Source of the DNA: Acidobacteriota bacterium
Lineage (GTDB): Bacteria; Acidobacteriota; UBA6911
Direction: 5' to 3'
Assembly: GCA_016933615.1 (NCBI GenBank)
Contig: JAFGAO010000140.1
Span: 5,320-69,319, forward strand
DNA length: 64,000 bases
The notes below the pieces were generated by a model that was not told where the DNA came from, searched no databases, and saw nothing but the letters and a program-made list of their open reading frames with translations. Within the stretch, counting starts at the first letter, position 1. Every line of letters begins with the position of its first letter. Below, piece after piece: positions 11,769 to 64,000 of this stretch. A program made the position numbers and the translations under genes.

Positions 11769-12968
11769 CTATTTGAAAAGCAGGGGCGCTATTTCAGAAA
11801 GATAAATGCGCCAGTTCGCCCAGGTATGCCCGCCGCTGCTTTCACGGAAAGTGTGCTTGAAGTTCAATTTGTTCAAAGCCGTGTCCAGATTCTGCGAACC
11901 TTCGTAAGCCAGGCGGTCGTCCACTCCGCAACCGATCCAGTACAGCCTGTTTCCCGATTTGAGATTCTTAAGCTGATTTTCCACGGTCTCGTCGACGTTT
12001 CTTGCCCCGGCGCTGAACACCCCGATGTAACCAAACATGCCGGGGTTGTCGATCGTAATCCGGAATGCGTGGCCGCCTCCCATGGACAACCCTGCTATGG
12101 CGCGGCGGTCCTTGCCGGCCAGGACGCGGTAGTTTTTCTCGATGAAAGGCACGATGTCGGCGGCCAGGCTTTTTTCAAACATGCCGGTAAACTTCGCCCG
12201 ATCCTCGCGGCTCATGCCGGCGATGCCGGCCGGCGCCGGGACCTCGCCGGGAGTTGCAGCCTGGTAGGCGTTGCCGTTGGGCATCACCACGAGCATGGGC
12301 AGCGCTCTTCCCTGCGATATGAGGTTGTCCAGTATCTGGCAGGCGCGGCCCAGGGTGCTCCAGGCATCTTCATCACCGCCGCCGCCGTGAAGGAGGTAGA
12401 AGACAGGGTATTTATCGCTGCCGCCTTCATAGCCCGGGGGCGTGTAGACGTACATTCGGCGCGTCATATCGAGCGTCGGGGACGGATACCAGGCCTTGGC
12501 CAGGGTGCCGTGGGGAACGTCCTTTACTTCGTACAGCGCGGATTCCCTCCCCGGAACCAGCAGGATGCAGTCCACCCTTTGCCCGTCGCGCTTGTGGTTG
12601 GAATTGCCGGGGTCCAGGACCTTCACCCCGTCCACATTGAAGGAATACCCGTAGAACTCCGGTGCCAGGGGGCCGACGGTAACGGACCACACGCCTTCAT
12701 CGTCCCGGACCATTTTTTCGACGGCGCCGAAACCTTCCATCCACTCTCCGCCGAGGGTCACTTCTTTGGCATCCGGAGCGGAGAGCCGGAAAGTAACCTT
12801 GTTGTCCGCATGAATTTCCGGGGAAACCAGGGCGGGTGCGCGCATGAAAGCCGCCGGCGCCTGTTTCTGCTTCGGAGCCTGCTGCGCCAAAGCCGTGGAG
12901 CAAAGGCTCAGCGCCAAAACGGTCATGAAAACACCGAATCCCAGCCGCAGTTCTCTGTTTTGTGCCAT
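11769..12968 (-). CDS. Secreted esterase (CBM48-like N-domain plus CE1-type alpha/beta hydrolase)
   Basis: Signal peptide, YPVFYLLHGGG, nucleophile GLSMGG, catalytic His in GGHTWANW. Confidence 0.9.
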   Translation of the reverse strand: MAQNRELRLGFGVFMTVLALSLCSTALAQQAPKQKQAPAAFMRAPALVSPEIHADNKVTFRLSAPDAKEVTLGGEWMEGFGAVEKMVRDDEGVWSVTVGPLAPEFYGYSFNVDGVKVLDPGNSNHKRDGQRVDCILLVPGRESALYEVKDVPHGTLAKAWYPSPTLDMTRRMYVYTPPGYEGGSDKYPVFYLLHGGGGDEDAWSTLGRACQILDNLISQGRALPMLVVMPNGNAYQAATPGEVPAPAGIAGMSREDRAKFTGMFEKSLAADIVPFIEKNYRVLAGKDRRAIAGLSMGGGHAFRITIDNPGMFGYIGVFSAGARNVDETVENQLKNLKSGNRLYWIGCGVDDRLAYEGSQNLDTALNKLNFKHTFRESSGGHTWANWRIYLSEIAPLLFK

Positions 12969-56190: not shown

Positions 56191-57804
56191 TTATTTGATC
56201 GCTACCCGGATCTGAGTGAAGGAATGCGCCGGGAACGAGAAGGTAAATGAGCCCCCTCCCGTTTCCATGGTGGAAGCCGCGGGCCGATATTTGTCTTTGT
56301 CGTTTTCGGTATAGGGCGATTCGACATCCTCGCTGTTGATGGTGCTTATTGCCGCCGTTCCTGAAAATTCTCCGGTATCGCTGATAATATCAGCCGTGAT
56401 CGCCTTATCCATATTCCGGTTCACGACGTTCATTACCAGGGTTTTTTCGTCTTCCGAATAGGCGGATGAAACGTCCAGATAAGGAATATCCCTGTAAATT
56501 TCACCGTCGAATGTCTCGCAATCCACGTAGGTATCCAGCGACGCGCCTTTCACGTTTGTCGAAAACAACTTGTACATGTAGAAAAAGGGGGCCTTGTATG
56601 TCCGTCCCTCCCTGCCCCGCGACAGGAGGCTGGTAAACATTGTAAAGTTCGCCCTTTTTACGAAATCGGCGTGCCGCAGGAAGGTATTGAAATGCAGCGC
56701 TCCCGCCAGCGTGCTCATGTGGTTTTGTCCCCGCAGCCCCCATTCCGTAAAGGCGATGTAAAACGGCTTGCCGGGGACGCGATTTTTGATTTTCGCTATT
56801 TTGATCTGATTCTCGGTTGTGGAAATATAATCGTTGAAATGCCTTTCCCAGTCCCCCAGAAACACGTGCGGCACCCTGTCGTTTTCAATGTCGTTGCGGA
56901 GGCCGGTGCCCCAGTAGCGGTGAACGGCAATGTATTCCACGTTCCTTTGCGCAATCAGCCCGTCGATTACGTCCCCGTTCCATTGCACCCATTCCGCGTC
57001 CTCCCCGTCGTGGAATACCCAGGAGGATCCCATGGCGATAAAAACGGGCTGGGTGCAGGTTTTGCAGCCCCGGTTGACGAAATACATGATCGTGGCGGCG
57101 TCCCTGGCATAGGCGACATACTCTTCCGAGCTCAGGGCCACCGCCTGCCACGGCTCTCCGTCCACTTCGTTCCCGAGGTGCCAGTACTTCACGCCGTAGG
57201 GCTCGGGGTGGCCGTATCGGGCCCTTAAATCGGCATAATACGAGCCCGCCGGGGAATTCACGTATTCTATCCAGTTCCGATTGTCTTCGAGCGTGGCGGT
57301 GGTCACGTTGATGCAGATGGAACTCTCCACCCCCATGGCTTCCGCCAGCTGCAGCCATTCATCGGTCCCTACCCGGTTCCGGTCCAGCACGTTCCAGGCA
57401 AGCTCCCTCCTGACCGGCCGGTCTTCCTTGGGGCCGATGCCGTCCTTCCAGTTGTAGGTGAGAGTGTAATTGCCCCCGGGCCAGCGCATATTGGGGAGCT
57501 GCAATTCCCTGGCTGCCTCTATGTAATCGGTCCGGAATCCGTCTTCATTAGCCAGGGGGTGCTCCGGATCGTAAAGCATGCCGTCCATGGAATTGACGAT
57601 GGGTTCCATGAAAACCCCGTATAGGTTCCGGTCGATGTCCCCGATCGTCCGGAGTATATCTATTTTAATTGTGGCGTTCTGAGGGTAGGCGGGGTTTGCA
57701 TTTGCCAGAAAAACAATCGCCAGAACGCCCGCAGCCTCGAAATACTTTCCAATGCAGCGGCGAAAAGATCCGGACCGGTTTATTTTCATTTTCATCGCCT
57801 CCAT
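56191..57804 (-). CDS. GH51 alpha-L-arabinofuranosidase, secreted
   Basis: RWPGGN, acid/base LGNEVDG, nucleophile FTEW, C-terminal FPAHS. Confidence 0.92.
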
Positions 57805-57971
57805 CGGGTTTGAAAGATTTTTTCAAATTTCATCGGGTTCGGCACAATCCCGGCAGAGCCGGGGCGCGGGCTTCCGTCGCTCGGCCGCCGCGGGCGGGCC
57901 GGAGCGCATCGAAGAAGCTTCCCTGCCGGTTCCGTGGGTCCGCCCCGCAAAATCAGGAAGTATTTCGGGTT

Positions 57972-58973
57972 CTAATTATTCGGCTCTTCGCTTTCATCCG
58001 CCCGGTTGAGCGGGGCGCCGCAGGCAATTGCACTGACCATCGCCGAATAATTCGACCTTGTCGGATAGGGGAAGCTCTCCGCGCTTTCCGTCTCTGATTC
58101 CGGGTCCATATCGGACATGGGAACCGGCTCCATGGTATCGAGGTACTCCCTGGCAGTCCGCAGGACCTCCTCCGCTCCGGGAGAAGCCTCGATTTCGACA
58201 ACCGTGTCCTTGTGCCAACCGCCCAGAACCTCTTCGGACAGCGCTTCATAATCCCTTTGACCGATCGCGTGCCTGTCGTAATCGCCGACAGGCAATCCGT
58301 GATCCACGGTCTCCCTGAGCCGGATATTGTAGCGGATGACCGTGTGGAACACCTTGTCTTCAAATTTCTCCCGGACCCTCTCGAGCACTTCCTGGGAATA
58401 GCGCGTCCTTGCGTCGAACATGGTTACAAGCGCCCGGGGCGTAACTTCATGGCCGGATGCGTTTTTGATCATGACCATCATATCCGTCAGCTTGGCAATC
58501 CCCCGGAGGGAAAAGAGGCTCATGTCGATGGGCAGGATCGCCTCAGAAGCGGCGCGGAGGGCATTGAAGCTCAGGTGCCCGATGCTGGGCGGACAATCGA
58601 CGATTATGAAATCGAAGGGTTTCTCCAGGCGCGCGATCGCCTCCAGGAGCCTTTTTTCCCTGCCGTCCACGAGCGCCAACTCCTGCTCCACGGCGCACAG
58701 CAGCGTGTCCGACGGCGCGATGTCGAAATTCTCCTTGACCGGAACGACGACATCGTCGAGCCCTACCCGGCCCGTTTGCGTCGGAGAAACCGCATGATAT
58801 ATGTTCTGCTCCGGGTCGCAGTCTATGTTAAGCCCCATCGTGGCGTGGGACTGGGGGTCAAAGTCGATCAGTAGCACCTTTTGCCCTTTCGATGCCAGAC
58901 AAGACGAAAGATTGATGGCCGTGGTGGTTTTTCCGCATCCTCCCTTTTGATTCGCAACCGCAATGATTCGCAT
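57972..58973 (-). CDS. ParA/Soj family ATPase with acidic C-terminal extension
   Basis: Deviant Walker A KGGCGKTT, IDFDPQS, IVDCPP, IRYNIRLRE. Confidence 0.93.
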   Translation of the reverse strand: MRIIAVANQKGGCGKTTTAINLSSCLASKGQKVLLIDFDPQSHATMGLNIDCDPEQNIYHAVSPTQTGRVGLDDVVVPVKENFDIAPSDTLLCAVEQELALVDGREKRLLEAIARLEKPFDFIIVDCPPSIGHLSFNALRAASEAILPIDMSLFSLRGIAKLTDMMVMIKNASGHEVTPRALVTMFDARTRYSQEVLERVREKFEDKVFHTVIRYNIRLRETVDHGLPVGDYDRHAIGQRDYEALSEEVLGGWHKDTVVEIEASPGAEEVLRTAREYLDTMEPVPMSDMDPESETESAESFPYPTRSNYSAMVSAIACGAPLNRADESEEPNN

Positions 58974-59059
58974 TCAATCTCCTTTCCCGCTTTCCGCTTT
59001 TATGAAACAAAAACCTTTAATGGACAACAACGAGAGCAATCCGACGCCGGCTTCTCGCT

Positions 59060-59671
59060 CTACGCTTCAGGTGAAATCTCCCATGCGCGCTCAAAGAGAA
59101 TCCCGCATTCCCCCGGCATGGCTACAACGCGGAATGCAACGCAGCAGACTTCCGGGGACGTGCTGCGCCGGGCGACACATTTGAGCAAAGGTGAAAAACC
59201 GGGGGCGACAAGAAACAACCGCGGCCGGGCGGAAAAGTTTATCGCGCGCCCCCTGTACATGCGCCTGACAATCGGCGTATTGCGCACGATCCAGTCCGAA
59301 TATGCAATGCCCAGGAGAAGCGATTCGTCCTTCCGGGCCACATCGACGTTCACGATGCAAAGCCGGTCCCGGCTGTCGACGGCCACCAAATCGATGCAGC
59401 CGAACGGGGCGCAGGGTATGTTTTCATCTATCGCGTACAAGCCGTCCTCGAGAACGGCCGCATTCCCTTTTAAAAATCCCAGGACCAACTCCCGGCCGAC
59501 AGCCGGAGAGTCGTGCAATAGAAAAGGAGTCCCGGATGGAGCCCGTTCGGATGGAGCTTTTACCGGCGGGATGCCGGTAATTTCCGCTTTTTCAGCCGGT
59601 TTGTCGGCCGATTGCGTTAGAAACAGGCGAGATAAATCTTCCAACCCCCGGGAGAGCCGCTTTTCCGTCAA
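59060..59671 (-). CDS. Hypothetical ParA-associated protein: N-terminal LSRGLEDL peptide, low-complexity linker, degenerate PD-(D/E)xK/NucS-like domain
   Basis: Probable TTG start at 59671 (track start 59794). GCIDLVAVD...RLCIV...RLFLVAP. Confidence 0.6.
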   Translation of the reverse strand: MTEKRLSRGLEDLSRLFLTQSADKPAEKAEITGIPPVKAPSERAPSGTPFLLHDSPAVGRELVLGFLKGNAAVLEDGLYAIDENIPCAPFGCIDLVAVDSRDRLCIVNVDVARKDESLLLGIAYSDWIVRNTPIVRRMYRGRAINFSARPRLFLVAPGFSPLLKCVARRSTSPEVCCVAFRVVAMPGECGILFERAWEISPEA

Positions 59672-60189
59672 ACGGCTCTCTTGGGCGGAGTCTTCAACCG
59701 GTTTGTTTCGCTGCAGGTCCAAGTTATTAAAAGTAAGCGTATTAGCGCAAAAAATGGGTTTCAAACGGCGGTTATTCGCTTCGAATTCAATCACGGAATC
59801 GCCGGCATTTAATGTGGCATTTCCCTCTATTGCCGCTCTATGGATCCACTTTCCAATGCCGGTTCCATCTTATCAATAAAATCGGCAAAAACAACTATTT
59901 GTTGGGGGAAATATTTTTTATGCCCCAATATGTCGTGGTAATTGGCAATCTGAAAGAGTAGAGGGAACGGAGCTGGATTTCAATGAATGTTTCCCGCGGA
60001 AGGATGATCCCCGGCGCCGCGGCCGACCGGCCGGAACAGGGGGGTCGACAACGATGCCGCGCGGCTTTCTTTGAAAGAGGGCGGCCCACCCTTCCGAAAA
60101 CGGCGCAGCGAAAGGACACCGGCAATGTTCTTGGTTCAAACCCGTATGCCGGTTTCTGCCGTTTTCAAGGAATTACCGCTGCGAAGCGA

Positions 60190-61122
60190 TTATTCGACTG
60201 CAAAAGCGCCCAGGTGAACGACACGGTCATCGACCACAAGTGCGGCCCCGGTCAGATTTTTCCCCGAAAGGCGGACATCTTTCCCTTCGCCGACCGCGTC
60301 GAACTCTTCCTTTCCGGCTTCGACGATGGACTCCAAAAACGCAGCGACATCCTGCGGGGTGCAAGCCGCTTCTTCCCCGGGCCGATCCCCCGCACCCCGG
60401 TCAATCGCATCAAGGCCGTAGCCGTGCAAAAGCTTTGGAAAGAGCTTCTTCAGAGTTTCGGACGAGTCGAACAGGTCCAGCCCGACTATCTTTCCATTAA
60501 TCGCAAACAGCGCACCCGACTGCCCTGCAAGGGATGAAAAGCAACGGGAATAATCCTCGAGCCCGGCCTTCGCATGATTGTAAATATCGCGCACGGCGGA
60601 TGTGTCCGAGAAAACGCCGAACCTCGAAGACTTCTCGGCGATATCGCGCCACACCCGTACCTGATCCGAGTCCCTGCGGCCAGCGGAATGCAGCGAGTTG
60701 CTGACCTGGGCCATCTTCCGGGCGCGCCCTTCGGCGAAATAGGCGCTTTCGGATGATGAAAAGCCTGCGCTGGTGTGACGCCACCGGCCCGCTTCCACGC
60801 AGGAAACCGGGATGATCACGACTTTGCCGCCCGCCACCAGGATACTGAGATTGAGCACCCGGTTCTGCTTCGCTCCGATCAGCTGCTCGCCGTCGAGCAG
60901 GAAAACCGGCTGAGAGCCGGAATTGACGAATTTCAGTTCAGGCACGCTTCCCCCTTCGCTGACCTCCGTCACCTCGGAGCATTTCCGCTCGAGCGCCTCA
61001 TCCAGGGTCAGGTAATCCGTCCCCTTCAAATCGATTCCAAACAGGGGGAAAACCGTCAGGTTCCTGTAAGACGCCGGCTCGCCGACACGGATATTTTTTA
61101 CTACATCACGGATCCATTCCAT
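60190..61122 (-). CDS. ARPP-1 (DUF6569) family protein
   Basis: GGSVPEL...LLDGEQLIGAKQNRVLN...IPVSCVEAGRW, QVRVW, FPKLLHGYGLDA. Confidence 0.8.
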   Translation of the reverse strand: MEWIRDVVKNIRVGEPASYRNLTVFPLFGIDLKGTDYLTLDEALERKCSEVTEVSEGGSVPELKFVNSGSQPVFLLDGEQLIGAKQNRVLNLSILVAGGKVVIIPVSCVEAGRWRHTSAGFSSSESAYFAEGRARKMAQVSNSLHSAGRRDSDQVRVWRDIAEKSSRFGVFSDTSAVRDIYNHAKAGLEDYSRCFSSLAGQSGALFAINGKIVGLDLFDSSETLKKLFPKLLHGYGLDAIDRGAGDRPGEEAACTPQDVAAFLESIVEAGKEEFDAVGEGKDVRLSGKNLTGAALVVDDRVVHLGAFAVE

Positions 61123-61282: not shown

Positions 61283-64000
61283 ATGAACAATCTACCGGAC
61301 AATCCGGGAGACCCGGAACGGCTGCGCGAGAAATACGGGCGGTTGCTGCGTGAATACGAACGCATAAAAGCTGAAAACAGGCGCCTCAAAGAACGGTTCG
61401 GGCTTGGAGAATCTGACAATGCCGCAAATTTCGCACCCGGATTGAAGCAGGGGAAAAACAGCCCTGATGCGGAAACAATCGACGATATCCCCAATTCGAT
61501 CATATCCAACACATCCGATTCGTCTGAAAAAATCAGGTTGTACATGACTCTTTTTAAAGGCCGGGACGATGTGTACGCCAGGAGGTGGGAGAACAGGAAG
61601 AAAGGAACATCCGGATATTCACCCGTATGCCTGAACGAATGGGTTCCCGGAATATGCGCCAAACCGGAATCTTCCTGTTCCCGGTGCACCCAAAAATCCT
61701 ATGCCGTCCTCGATGAGGCTGTGATCGAAAACCACCTGAGAGGAAACATTGTCGCCGGCATTTACCCCCTTTTCCCGGATGAAACCTGCTGGTTTTTAGC
61801 GATCGATTTCGACGAAGCGGACTGGCAAAAGGACATCCATGCACTGAGAGGGGTTTGTGCGGAATATGCAATTCCTTATGCCGTGGAACGATCCCGGTCC
61901 GGCACAGGCGGCCACATCTGGTTTTTCTTTGAAAATCGGATACCGGCGGCCCTGGCAAGAAAGCTCGGAACCGCGCTCCTGACATATTCCATGAACAGAC
62001 GGCACGAGATCCGATTCCAATCCTACGACCGCCTTTTCCCCAGCCAGGACACGCTTCCCAAAGGCGGTTTCGGGAACCTGATCGCCCTTCCACTGCAAAA
62101 AGCCGCGAGGGAGAACAACAACAGCGAATTCGTGGATGAAAATTTCCGCTCCTATCCCGACCAATGGGCGTTTCTGTCCACTGTCCGGAAGCTTTCCGAA
62201 GAAAGCGTCGAACATCTGATATCGAAGCTCTGCGCCGGTCAGGAACTGGGGGAACTTAAAATCGACCCTGAAGAGGATGACGGGGAAAAGGGAAAACCCT
62301 GGGAAATCAGAAAAACCCCGATCTCCAGAAACGACTTCCCCGGCCGGATTGAAATTGTCCGCGCAAATATGCTCTTTGTCCCGAAGGCCGGAATCTCCCA
62401 AAGGGGGCTCAATCACATAAAGAGGCTGGCATCTTTCAAGAACCCGATGTTTTTCAGACAACAGGCCATGCGCCTGTCGACATACGGACATCCCAGGGTC
62501 ATCTCGTGCGCGGACGAAACCGAAGACTATCTATGCCTGCCGAGAGGGTGCGGGGAGGATCTGTCGAAGGAACTCGGGGAGCTTGGAATCCGTTATCTGT
62601 TCACGGATAAAACCTGGGCCGGCAGAAGCATCGATGTGGAATTCAGGGGGGAGCTTAGAGAGGAGCAATCCCTGGCGCTTCAACAACTGCTGCGGCACGA
62701 AACCGGCATACTTTCAGGAACAACCGCTTTCGGGAAAACAGTTGTGGCCCTCAAGCTGATCGCCGAAAGAAAAGTCAACACGCTCATCCTGGTCGACAAG
62801 GTCAGCCTGCTTTCGCAATGGAAAAAGAAGATTTCCGAGTTCCTGATTATAAATGAAACGCCGGCGGATCCGGCCGAAAGCGCCGGCAAGAAACGCGGAA
62901 GAAAAAAGCAAACGGACCGGGTGGGCCAGCTCGGAGCGGGACGAAACACGCTGAGCGGCATAGTGGACATTGCGGTCATGCAGTCATTGAGCAGGAAGGG
63001 GGAGGTCAGGGATTGCATACGGGACTACGGGATGATCGTGCCCGATGAATGCCATCACGCATCCGCCTTCACCTATGAAAGCATCCTGAAATCCGCCCGG
63101 GCGAAATACATCTGCGGGCTGACCGCCACACCGACTCGCAAGGACGGGCACCATCCGATTTTCTTCATGCACTGCGGCCCCATACGGTACCGGGACAATC
63201 CTCAGAAACAGGCTGCACAAAGGCCATTCGACCATTTTGTCGTCCCGCGTTTTACGTCCTTAAGAATTCCGCCGGGAACCGAGGAAAGGGAAGTTTCCAT
63301 TCAGGATTTGTACTCCGAAATTATCGACAGTGAAATCCGGAACCGACAGATCGTGGACGATGTCCTTGCAAATTACGAACTCGGCAGAAACTGCATCGTT
63401 CTCTCCCTGCGCACCGCGCATGTCGAGAAACTTGCCGTTACTTTGCGCGAATCGGTTCCCGATTCGGACGTCATCACCCTGACGGGAGGGATGGGGGCGA
63501 AAACAACACGGGAAGTCTTGGAGCGCATCTCCGATATCCCCGAGGAAAGGAAGATGATACTGGTGGCCACCGGCCATTTCATAGGGGAAGGCTTCGACGA
63601 ACCGCGCCTCGACACGCTGTTTCTCACCATGCCGATATCGTGGAAAGGCACCCTGCAGCAATATGCAGGGCGCCTCCATCGCCTGTACCGAAACAAAAAG
63701 GAGGTCCGCATTTACGATTATGTCGATGTACAGGTAGGCATGCTGGAAAGAATGTACCGGAGACGGCTCAACGGGTATGCCGCGATGGGTTACAAGGCCA
63801 AAGGGGAAGACCTTCCGTCGGCTCCGATGGACATCATTTATAATCGTGACAGCTTTTTGCCGGTTTTCATCAACGATATGGCCGCCGCACAAAGGCAAAT
63901 TCTGATCGTGAGCCCTTTTGTCAGAAGGAGACGCGCCTTGCAGATGTTGCAGCAGCTGAAGACCGCGATATCCGGCAATGTGCGTGTTGTCGTCGTTACC
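61283..64000 (+). CDS. TOTE-type archaeo-eukaryotic primase plus SF2 helicase plus start of a PLD-like domain (3'-truncated by window edge)
   Basis: Open frame from ATG 61283, not in the ORF track. LFKGRDDVYA, AIDFD, ERSRSGTGGHIW, GGFGNLIALPLQ, AFGKT, DECHH, GLTATP, EGFD, QYAGRLHR, LIVSPF. Confidence 0.9.
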   Translation, partial: MNNLPDNPGDPERLREKYGRLLREYERIKAENRRLKERFGLGESDNAANFAPGLKQGKNSPDAETIDDIPNSIISNTSDSSEKIRLYMTLFKGRDDVYARRWENRKKGTSGYSPVCLNEWVPGICAKPESSCSRCTQKSYAVLDEAVIENHLRGNIVAGIYPLFPDETCWFLAIDFDEADWQKDIHALRGVCAEYAIPYAVERSRSGTGGHIWFFFENRIPAALARKLGTALLTYSMNRRHEIRFQSYDRLFPSQDTLPKGGFGNLIALPLQKAARENNNSEFVDENFRSYPDQWAFLSTVRKLSEESVEHLISKLCAGQELGELKIDPEEDDGEKGKPWEIRKTPISRNDFPGRIEIVRANMLFVPKAGISQRGLNHIKRLASFKNPMFFRQQAMRLSTYGHPRVISCADETEDYLCLPRGCGEDLSKELGELGIRYLFTDKTWAGRSIDVEFRGELREEQSLALQQLLRHETGILSGTTAFGKTVVALKLIAERKVNTLILVDKVSLLSQWKKKISEFLIINETPADPAESAGKKRGRKKQTDRVGQLGAGRNTLSGIVDIAVMQSLSRKGEVRDCIRDYGMIVPDECHHASAFTYESILKSARAKYICGLTATPTRKDGHHPIFFMHCGPIRYRDNPQKQAAQRPFDHFVVPRFTSLRIPPGTEEREVSIQDLYSEIIDSEIRNRQIVDDVLANYELGRNCIVLSLRTAHVEKLAVTLRESVPDSDVITLTGGMGAKTTREVLERISDIPEERKMILVATGHFIGEGFDEPRLDTLFLTMPISWKGTLQQYAGRLHRLYRNKKEVRIYDYVDVQVGMLERMYRRRLNGYAAMGYKAKGEDLPSAPMDIIYNRDSFLPVFINDMAAAQRQILIVSPFVRRRRALQMLQQLKTAISGNVRVVVVT

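Follow-up and report, generated by a model that had tools for sequence, protein, structure and literature searches.

Which protein does a ParA-type ATPase work with where no ParB is encoded beside it? The question is raised by two adjacent genes in a stretch of 64,000 nucleotides from an Acidobacteriota bacterium (GCA_016933615.1, contig JAFGAO010000140.1; the whole stretch is called the window below). An earlier note on this DNA had described an orphan ParA paired with a non-ParB partner that carries a ParB-like activating peptide, and had proposed a ParA/adaptor system that positions a cargo. Our analysis bears out the pairing: the ATPase belongs to the Soj class, and the L-x-R-G-L peptide of the partner agrees with the ParB motif at four of five positions. 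Judged from sequence, structure models and analogy with known systems, the two genes probably form a self-contained ParA/adaptor positioning module, and this is the best reading of the in silico evidence. With 22 clusters in one genus-level clade and its gene order inverted, the pair forms a narrow side branch of a much larger ParA-CBM48 two-gene family. That the partner is not a ParB, as the earlier note said, stands; the ATPase itself is no lone oddity and descends, without the CBM48, from this large family. Both genes lie co-oriented on the minus strand of the window.

57972..58973, minus strand: parA, a gene for a Soj/ParA-class ATPase of 333 amino acids plus stop, assigned from Pfam, PDB relatives and the ratio of nonsynonymous to synonymous substitution rates (dN/dS)
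59060..59671, minus strand: partner gene, 203 amino acids from TTG 59671 (alternative TTG 59722), from the list of open reading frames (ORFs) and the sequence

ParB-like peptide of the partner

The partner is tripartite, consisting of a ParB-like peptide (KRLSRGLEDLSRLFL), a variable Pro/Ala/Ser/Glu linker and a NucS-C/PD-(D/E)xK fold.

59612..59662, minus strand: ParB-like, predicted ParA-activating peptide, residues 4-20 (KRLSRGLEDLSRLFLTQ), read from the translation; the segment of lowest entropy
59522..59611, minus strand: flexible Pro/Ala/Ser/Glu-rich linker, residues 21-50, 63% P/A/S/E/T, with a predicted local distance difference test score (pLDDT) below 50
59081..59518, minus strand: NucS-C-like PD-(D/E)xK fold with a degenerate active site, residues 52-197, pLDDT above 90 in the AlphaFold2 (AF2) model, and Foldseek match
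59342..59392, minus strand: active-site remnant (DLVAVDSRDRLCIVNVD), with D94 kept, N108 at the E position and D110 at the K position

A total of 144 close homologues of the partner were found, every one annotated as hypothetical and mostly from metagenome-assembled genomes of Acidobacteriota; the partner itself matches no Pfam, NCBIfam, PADLOC or PHROGs family. Analysis of 48 homologues, down to 38% identity, revealed the nearly invariant peptide consensus (K/R)-R-L-(A/S/G)-R-G-L-E-D-(V/I)-S-(H/Y)-L-F-L-S-Q, and the conservation on which the earlier proposal hinged is thus found across this whole range. Mean column entropy in the 48 sequences is lowest for the peptide (0.68 bit), followed by the folded domain (1.26 bit) and the linker (2.36 bit). 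In distant members the peptide literally reads PLGRGLED(V/I)SHLFLS. The Pro/Ala-rich linker that the earlier note had seen is present as well and is disordered in the AF2 model.

The ParA-binding motif of Myxococcus xanthus ParB has been defined experimentally as L11-x-R13-x-L15-x-x-L18-I19, and the disordered N-terminal ParB peptide is both required and enough to activate ParA (PMC12462528). The partner peptide, L6-x-R8-G-L10-E-D-L13, has four of these five positions, with S14 in place of I19. Within the family the matched positions are L6, R8, L10 and L/V13, to which an invariant S-x-L-F-L extension is added. The peptide also resembles the N-terminus of the genome's own ParB (KVLGRGLGALIPE, starting MKKKVLGRGLGALIPE). 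A pattern composed after seeing these sequences, L[GAS][RK][GS]L[EGDSN][DAE][LVI], occurs three times among all open frames of at least 100 amino acids in the genome, namely in ParB and in two partner paralogues, and each of the three genes is encoded beside a Soj-like ParA.

Nuclease-like domain of the partner

The AF2 model of the partner, built from 48 homologues, has a mean pLDDT of 80; residues 1-50 are disordered and residues 52-197 form a confident alpha/beta domain with pLDDT above 90. Foldseek matched this domain to the nuclease domain of NucS/EndoMS (2vld, 5gke; E 4e-6, probability 1.0), followed by other PD-(D/E)xK nucleases, and the nuclease-like fold without a clear E-x-K that had been recognised from the letters is confirmed. 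In the active-site strand, IDLVAVD...LCIVNVD, the Asp is retained and E-x-K has become N-x-D (N108-V-D110). Peptide-bearing representatives have mostly D-D-D or D-D-E and never D-E-K, the catalytic Lys being absent throughout. With (N/D)-x-(D/E) in place of the catalytic E-x-K, nuclease activity of the partner is unlikely, and the peptide-bearing proteins do not look like the active-nuclease type, in line with the earlier note.

A profile search of 1.84 billion representatives revealed 799 relatives of the partner domain. Some of those that lack the peptide have an intact D...E-x-K and match Pfam NucS_C (PF01939), and PilZ fusions also belong to this group. Examples are P0327, P0348, P0321, P0322 and P0353, which are either PilZ-fused or have an intact D..E-x-K with a C-terminal extension of roughly 130 amino acids matching NucS_C; relatives with the intact triad and the extension are probably active nucleases. 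Other relatives bear a C-terminal LSxEEIAEF(M/L)DFD motif, and this motif and the N-terminal peptide are mutually exclusive. One relative with the C-terminal motif, P0343 (LSAEEIAEFMDFDKE; L034:441-1160), is encoded on a short contig directly upstream of a Cu-oxidase_4 (YfiH/PgeF-like) gene, and no ParA is visible near it within the 2.8 kb of that contig.

ParA ATPase and its acidic tail

58926..58946, minus strand: deviant Walker A KGGCGKT (K10-G-G-C-G-K15-T16), read from the translation and invariant in the ParA alignment
57975..58220, minus strand: acidic C-terminal tail, residues 252-333 (82 residues), net charge -13, isoelectric point 4.05

The product of parA matches Pfam AAA_31 (9e-49) and CbiA, and no NCBIfam equivalog was found above cut-off for it. 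Among solved structures, its best relatives are M. xanthus ParA (8RAY, 3.4e-45), Thermus Soj (1WCV, 2.7e-39) and Helicobacter pylori Soj. The deviant Walker A pattern KGGxxK[ST] and the Soj-class fold of a type I ParA are both present, and the core is modelled by AF2 with a pLDDT of about 90. The basic residues that the earlier note had placed at the DNA-binding motif were located in DARTRY and NIRLRE, where Arg is kept in alignment with R189/R218 of Bacillus subtilis Soj and R238 of M. xanthus ParA. The two Soj arginines are needed for non-specific DNA binding. M. xanthus R238 is likewise a non-specific DNA-binding residue (PMC12462528).

The extra acidic tail, put at about 80 amino acids in the earlier note, is one of 82 residues. 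It is disordered in the AF2 model (pLDDT below 50) except for short helices at residues 266-280 and 308-317, and contains two short conserved tail helices, AEEVLRTAREYLDTM and SNYSAMVSAI. The tail is restricted to 22 protein clusters, all of them ParA of 324-333 amino acids, and its motifs are invariant across 21 clusters. Judged from sequence only, it does not resemble a MinD-type amphipathic membrane-targeting helix, given the charge of -13 and the lack of basic residues in the terminal helix SNYSAMVSAI, which is modelled with low confidence. A MAFFT alignment hinted that the tail might be a decayed CBM48; profile-profile comparison with hhalign ruled this out (probability 0.1%).

Linkage, architectures and origin of the pair

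A survey of neighbourhoods, which the earlier note had proposed, showed that partner and ParA genes are adjacent in all loci with enough flanking sequence (9 of 9 of the window type and 15 of 15 of the CBM48 type). Two architectures account for these. Type I comprises the window, L001 and L004-L011; the partner gene precedes the ParA gene, and the ParA has 324-333 amino acids and the acidic tail. Type II comprises L002, L003, L012-L014, L017-L019, L021-L025, L041 and L042; here the ParA gene comes before the partner gene, the ParA has 370-380 amino acids with a C-terminal CBM48/AMPK1_CBM domain, and the stop and start codons of the pair sometimes overlap.

A type II pair, again adjacent, also occurs in the window's own genome, on contig C69. 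Its CBM48/AMPK1_CBM domain scores above both Pfam cut-offs. In an alignment with 1Z0N, the structure of the AMPK beta CBM, it retains the motifs FN(N/S)W, Y(K/R)(F/Y) and DG(Q/E)W. These motifs presumably include sugar-contacting residues. At least 367 clusters make up the ParA-CBM48 family; wherever the source gives a name, it is just 'chromosome partitioning protein' or 'AAA family ATPase', and one is labelled Methylomirabilota. At the type II locus L023, a 613-amino-acid ParA-CBM48-partner single frame (L023:1370-3208) was considered as fusion ('Rosetta stone') evidence and rejected for a frameshift inside CBM48, where RYRYESRGF... is read in place of RYRYVVDGTW...; the intact ParA is P0232, with 73 member sequences.

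Between the window pair and type II, identity is 38-58% for the partner and about 43-45% for ParA. In trees, the type I partners nest within one type II partner clade and the type I ParAs form a long separate branch, which suggests that type I was derived from type II by rearrangement and loss of CBM48 and has evolved fast.

A third architecture was found in four genomes of other Acidobacteriota families (type III). A NucS-C-like protein with a C-terminal motif opens a four-gene cluster and is followed by a MinD/FlhG-like ATPase, a ParA of 250 amino acids and a helix-hairpin-helix-like protein of 343 amino acids. The MinD/FlhG-like ATPase itself begins RRLGRGL(T/G)DL, a ParB-like peptide, and the ParA is 41-44% identical to that of the window. 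The loci are L045:5763-9258, L044:5913-9367, L043 and L046, and the C-terminal motif of their NucS-C-like proteins is LSxEEL(D/E)EFDRF. Because type III places the peptide on a MinD-like ATPase, the ParB-type peptide is, by these comparisons, a portable module within this ParA clade, with the dead NucS-like domain as its constant companion.

Selection and genomic setting

Comparison with four orthologues gave dN/dS values of 0.07-0.14 for the ParA core, 0.20-0.47 for the ParA tail, 0.10-0.17 for the partner domain, 0.14-0.32 for the peptide and 0.5-1.2 for the linker. Both genes are under purifying selection.

The ParA of the window is an orphan with respect to its locus, as had been claimed, and not with respect to its genome, which has a canonical ParABS elsewhere. 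A gidA-gidB-soj-spo0J cluster lies on contig C34, with two parS-like sites just upstream of soj-spo0J (C34:37348, AGTTTCACGTGAAACA, and C34:37377, CGTTTCACGTGAAACT; L033). ParB and parS were not found on the window's contig, so that the earlier statement of their absence from the locus holds; parS-like sites occur only on C34, and a perfect consensus parS is found nowhere in the genome.

Proposed mechanism and alternative explanations

In the proposed positioning module, ATP-bound ParA dimers would bind the nucleoid non-specifically, as Walker A and the conserved DNA-binding arginines suggest. The partner peptide would dock at the ParA dimer's edge and set off hydrolysis, in the manner of ParB (PMC12462528) and of other adaptors (PMC10241942). 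A linker of roughly 30 residues would join the peptide to the dead-nuclease domain, which may anchor or oligomerise the partner on either a cargo or DNA, and repeated cycles could result in gradient-driven tethering or positioning as in the ParA/MinD family, by analogy with M. xanthus ParA-ParB. In type II, CBM48 would tie the ATPase to alpha-glucan. The ancestral job was most likely the tethering or distribution of alpha-glucan (glycogen) particles, because the ATPase of the parent family carries CBM48 and one such copy is kept in the same genome. In the window copy CBM48 is replaced by an acidic disordered tail, and cargo or output would have changed with it. It is a possible but tentative extension of this proposal that the ParA-CBM48/partner pair is an ATP-driven machine for tethering and partitioning glycogen particles on the nucleoid, and that the window pair is a neofunctionalised copy with a non-glucan cargo.

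Several results weigh against the positioning reading. The ParB-binding pocket of M. xanthus ParA consists of V116, L150, L152, L155, L187 and L192, with Y81, E82, D110 and E117 (PMC12462528). Mapped onto it by alignment, the window ParA conserves the pocket only in part: Y81, G151 and E117 are identical, the changes L150 to I, L155 to F and L187 to M are conservative, and the changes L152 to H, L192 to S, E82 to H and D110 to L are not. The docking geometry of the peptide may therefore differ. The conserved acidic triad at the old active site of the partner could still bind metal or a ligand. Distribution is patchy: about 10 species out of 19 in the genus have the pair, as do 7 of 301 genomes from a sample of the whole phylum. 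No family recurred when 85 type II and 53 type I flanking ORFs were tallied by Pfam, and nothing identifies the cargo because the genes around the pair are not conserved. In Acidobacteriota the CBM48 type does not regularly have glycogen genes beside it, the single case being a glgC-like gene next to P0108. The two systems of this genome have almost identical peptides, so that they might cross-talk.

If the pair served DNA partition, the dead NucS-like domain would be a centromere-binding ParB analogue (compare ParG and ParT) and ParA would segregate the locus or an integrated element. The fold match fits this, since NucS/EndoMS domains bind DNA, and so do the Soj-class ParA with its DNA-binding residues, the ParB-like peptide and the known non-ParB partners that act independently of CTP (PMC12260392). 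An AEP primase-helicase and ARPP-1 are encoded just upstream in the window, and a primase-helicase is upstream in L004 too. Against it, no iterated or palindromic centromere-like repeats occur beyond chance around the operon (57700-60300), no relatives of the pair were found on 72,556 plasmids or 50,697 phages, and in a complete 6.9-Mb chromosome the pair is placed among ordinary metabolic genes, with flanks that vary by locus. The glycogen-binding domain of the sister family would also be left unexplained, and DNA partition is improbable as an account of the pair. An ATP-gated sequestration or sensing pair that couples, for example, nucleoid state or carbon storage to another process is likewise unlikely, taken together with its details, in which the acidic tail is an auto-inhibitory DNA mimic and the ancestral CBM48 a glycogen sensor as in AMPK. 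Such a switch could accommodate a tail that is strongly acidic and disordered yet conserved, a CBM48 closest to the regulatory AMPK beta CBM, the lack of linked cargo genes, and dead-nuclease-domain relatives fused to PilZ, a receptor domain for cyclic di-GMP. However, every characterised ParA with a peptide-bearing partner positions a cargo (PMC10241942), and there is no pointer to a specific regulated target.

A conflict or defence module, in which an ATPase and a nuclease-fold protein sit in a variable island by ARPP-1 and a primase-helicase-PLD gene, is very unlikely. ARPP-1 is encoded at 60190-61122 and an ARPP-1 homologue also adjoins the pair in L023, and defence-type genes (AAA_14/DUF4143, AbiEii-like AAA_21 and ResIII/DUF790) are neighbours at some window-type loci; but neighbours are inconsistent between loci, the catalytic Lys is missing in all peptide-bearing members, the partner matches nothing in PADLOC or PHROGs, and the matches of ParA there are trivial P-loop ones. 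A ParB-type peptide with a Soj-class ParA fits a positioning system instead. Decay of a duplicated ParA-CBM48 system into a functionless copy would be in keeping with the loss of CBM48, the long ParA branch and a distribution that is narrow and patchy within the genus. The selection analysis already speaks against this possibility, the most remote of those considered: neither ORF is disrupted, dN/dS is 0.07-0.17 in the folded parts, 0.14-0.32 in the peptide and below 1 in the tail, and the tail motifs are invariant across 21 clusters. A bacterial microcompartment (BMC) or carboxysome cargo was rejected, as no BMC shell protein (PF00936) is encoded in the 82%-complete genome.

Among the structures that ParA/MinD ATPases organise are chromosomes, plasmids, carboxysomes, chemoreceptor arrays and division sites; many of these ATPases are 'orphans', their partners being so diverse that they go unrecognised. 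If the pair is indeed a ParA/adaptor positioning module, the peptide on a dead NucS protein would be a new, portable class of ParA adaptor. The partner family is defined by a ParB-type peptide followed by a flexible linker and a NucS-like domain that is catalytically dead, and it accompanies one ParA clade in three architectures. The literature search turned up no account of a ParA associated with glycogen, CBM48 or a carbohydrate-binding module, nor one of the partner. A motor fused to a glycogen-binding module leads to a testable, unreported hypothesis, that bacteria actively position storage polysaccharide. A genome with ParABS, a ParA-CBM48 pair and a CBM48-less pair would further constitute a natural test case for the avoidance or exploitation of cross-talk.

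Other features of the locus

58974..59059, minus strand: spacer of 86 bp between the partner gene and parA, in which GGAAAGGAG precedes the parA ATG; read from the sequence

The longest ORF of the partner runs from 59060 to 59794 on the minus strand with a GTG start, and 59794, the end given in the earlier note, is that GTG. The initial 'M' of the sequence proposed there for the start of the protein is a TTG codon. This TTG, at 59671, is the likely start, with the Shine-Dalgarno-like stretch AAGAGAG upstream and a product of 203 amino acids (MTEKRLSRGLEDLSRLF). The alternative TTG 59722 would give 220 amino acids, in agreement with homologues that begin LDLQR. An imperfect inverted repeat at 59647-59685 (16-nt arms, 81% complementary, 7-nt loop) covers both TTG 59671 and the Shine-Dalgarno-like stretch, and could occlude initiation of partner translation. 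Promoter and terminator signals near the operon did not exceed chance.

Directly upstream of the pair is the ARPP-1 gene (PF20208; 60190-61122, minus strand). A protein 52% identical to it adjoins the distant type II pair of L023 (L023:50-662); this may be coincidence or a weak association. Further upstream is an AEP primase-helicase-like ORF (61283-64000, plus strand), an 82%-identical homologue of which has the same relative position in the closest relative (L004:5-2179), where ARPP-1 is absent. Elsewhere in the window (11769-12968, minus strand), a secreted esterase-like protein of 399 amino acids has an N-terminal CBM48-like module (PF02922, 28 bits) and is unrelated to the ParA system.

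Comparison with known systems

The window pair shares with ParABS, represented by M. xanthus ParA-ParB (8RAY; PMC12462528), a deviant Walker A ATPase of the Soj class, DNA-binding arginines and a disordered N-terminal L-x-R-G-L-x-x-hydrophobic peptide. Unlike ParB, the window partner has no ParB/Srx CTPase domain, no helix-turn-helix and no parS near the operon, and a dead NucS-C fold makes up its body. The peptide continues into the invariant S-x-L-F-L, the pocket is partly substituted, and the ATPase has an acidic tail (CBM48 in the sister family).

By analogy, McdA/McdB, ParC/ParP and PomXYZ (PMC10241942, PMC7993993) are alike in combining a nucleoid ParA-type ATPase with a non-ParB partner that has an activating N-terminus and a cargo-linking body, and several ParA/MinD adaptor systems can coexist in one cell (PMC10241942, PMC7993993). 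The fold of the window partner is unrelated to McdB, ParP and PomX, and no division genes are linked to the pair. In place of the disordered or coiled-coil protein of the McdB type there is a compact alpha/beta nuclease-like domain; in contrast to ParP, the partner has no CheW-like domain (no Pfam domain at all), and no chemotaxis genes are among the neighbours. Compared with adaptors of the McdA/McdB type, the sister family has an inverted design, in which it is the ATPase that carries the cargo-binding module, CBM48.

NucS/EndoMS (2VLD, 5GKE; NucS_C) has the PD-(D/E)xK fold and the motifs G-x-ID-(L/I)-x-A-x-D and P-R-x-x-L-(V/I)-A-P in common with the partner. The partner differs in having no NucS N-terminal dimerisation/DNA-binding domain, its residues 1-50 being disordered, in having D94/N108/D110 where NucS has the D...E-x-K triad, in its predicted ParA-activating peptide and in being always encoded beside a ParA. 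The closest likeness is to the ParA-CBM48/LGRGL-partner family. The window ParA differs from that family in having an unrelated acidic tail instead of CBM48, and the gene order is partner then ParA; the two share the same partner family, the (L)xRGLEDxSHLFLS peptide, the dead NucS-C-like domain and the ParA clade.

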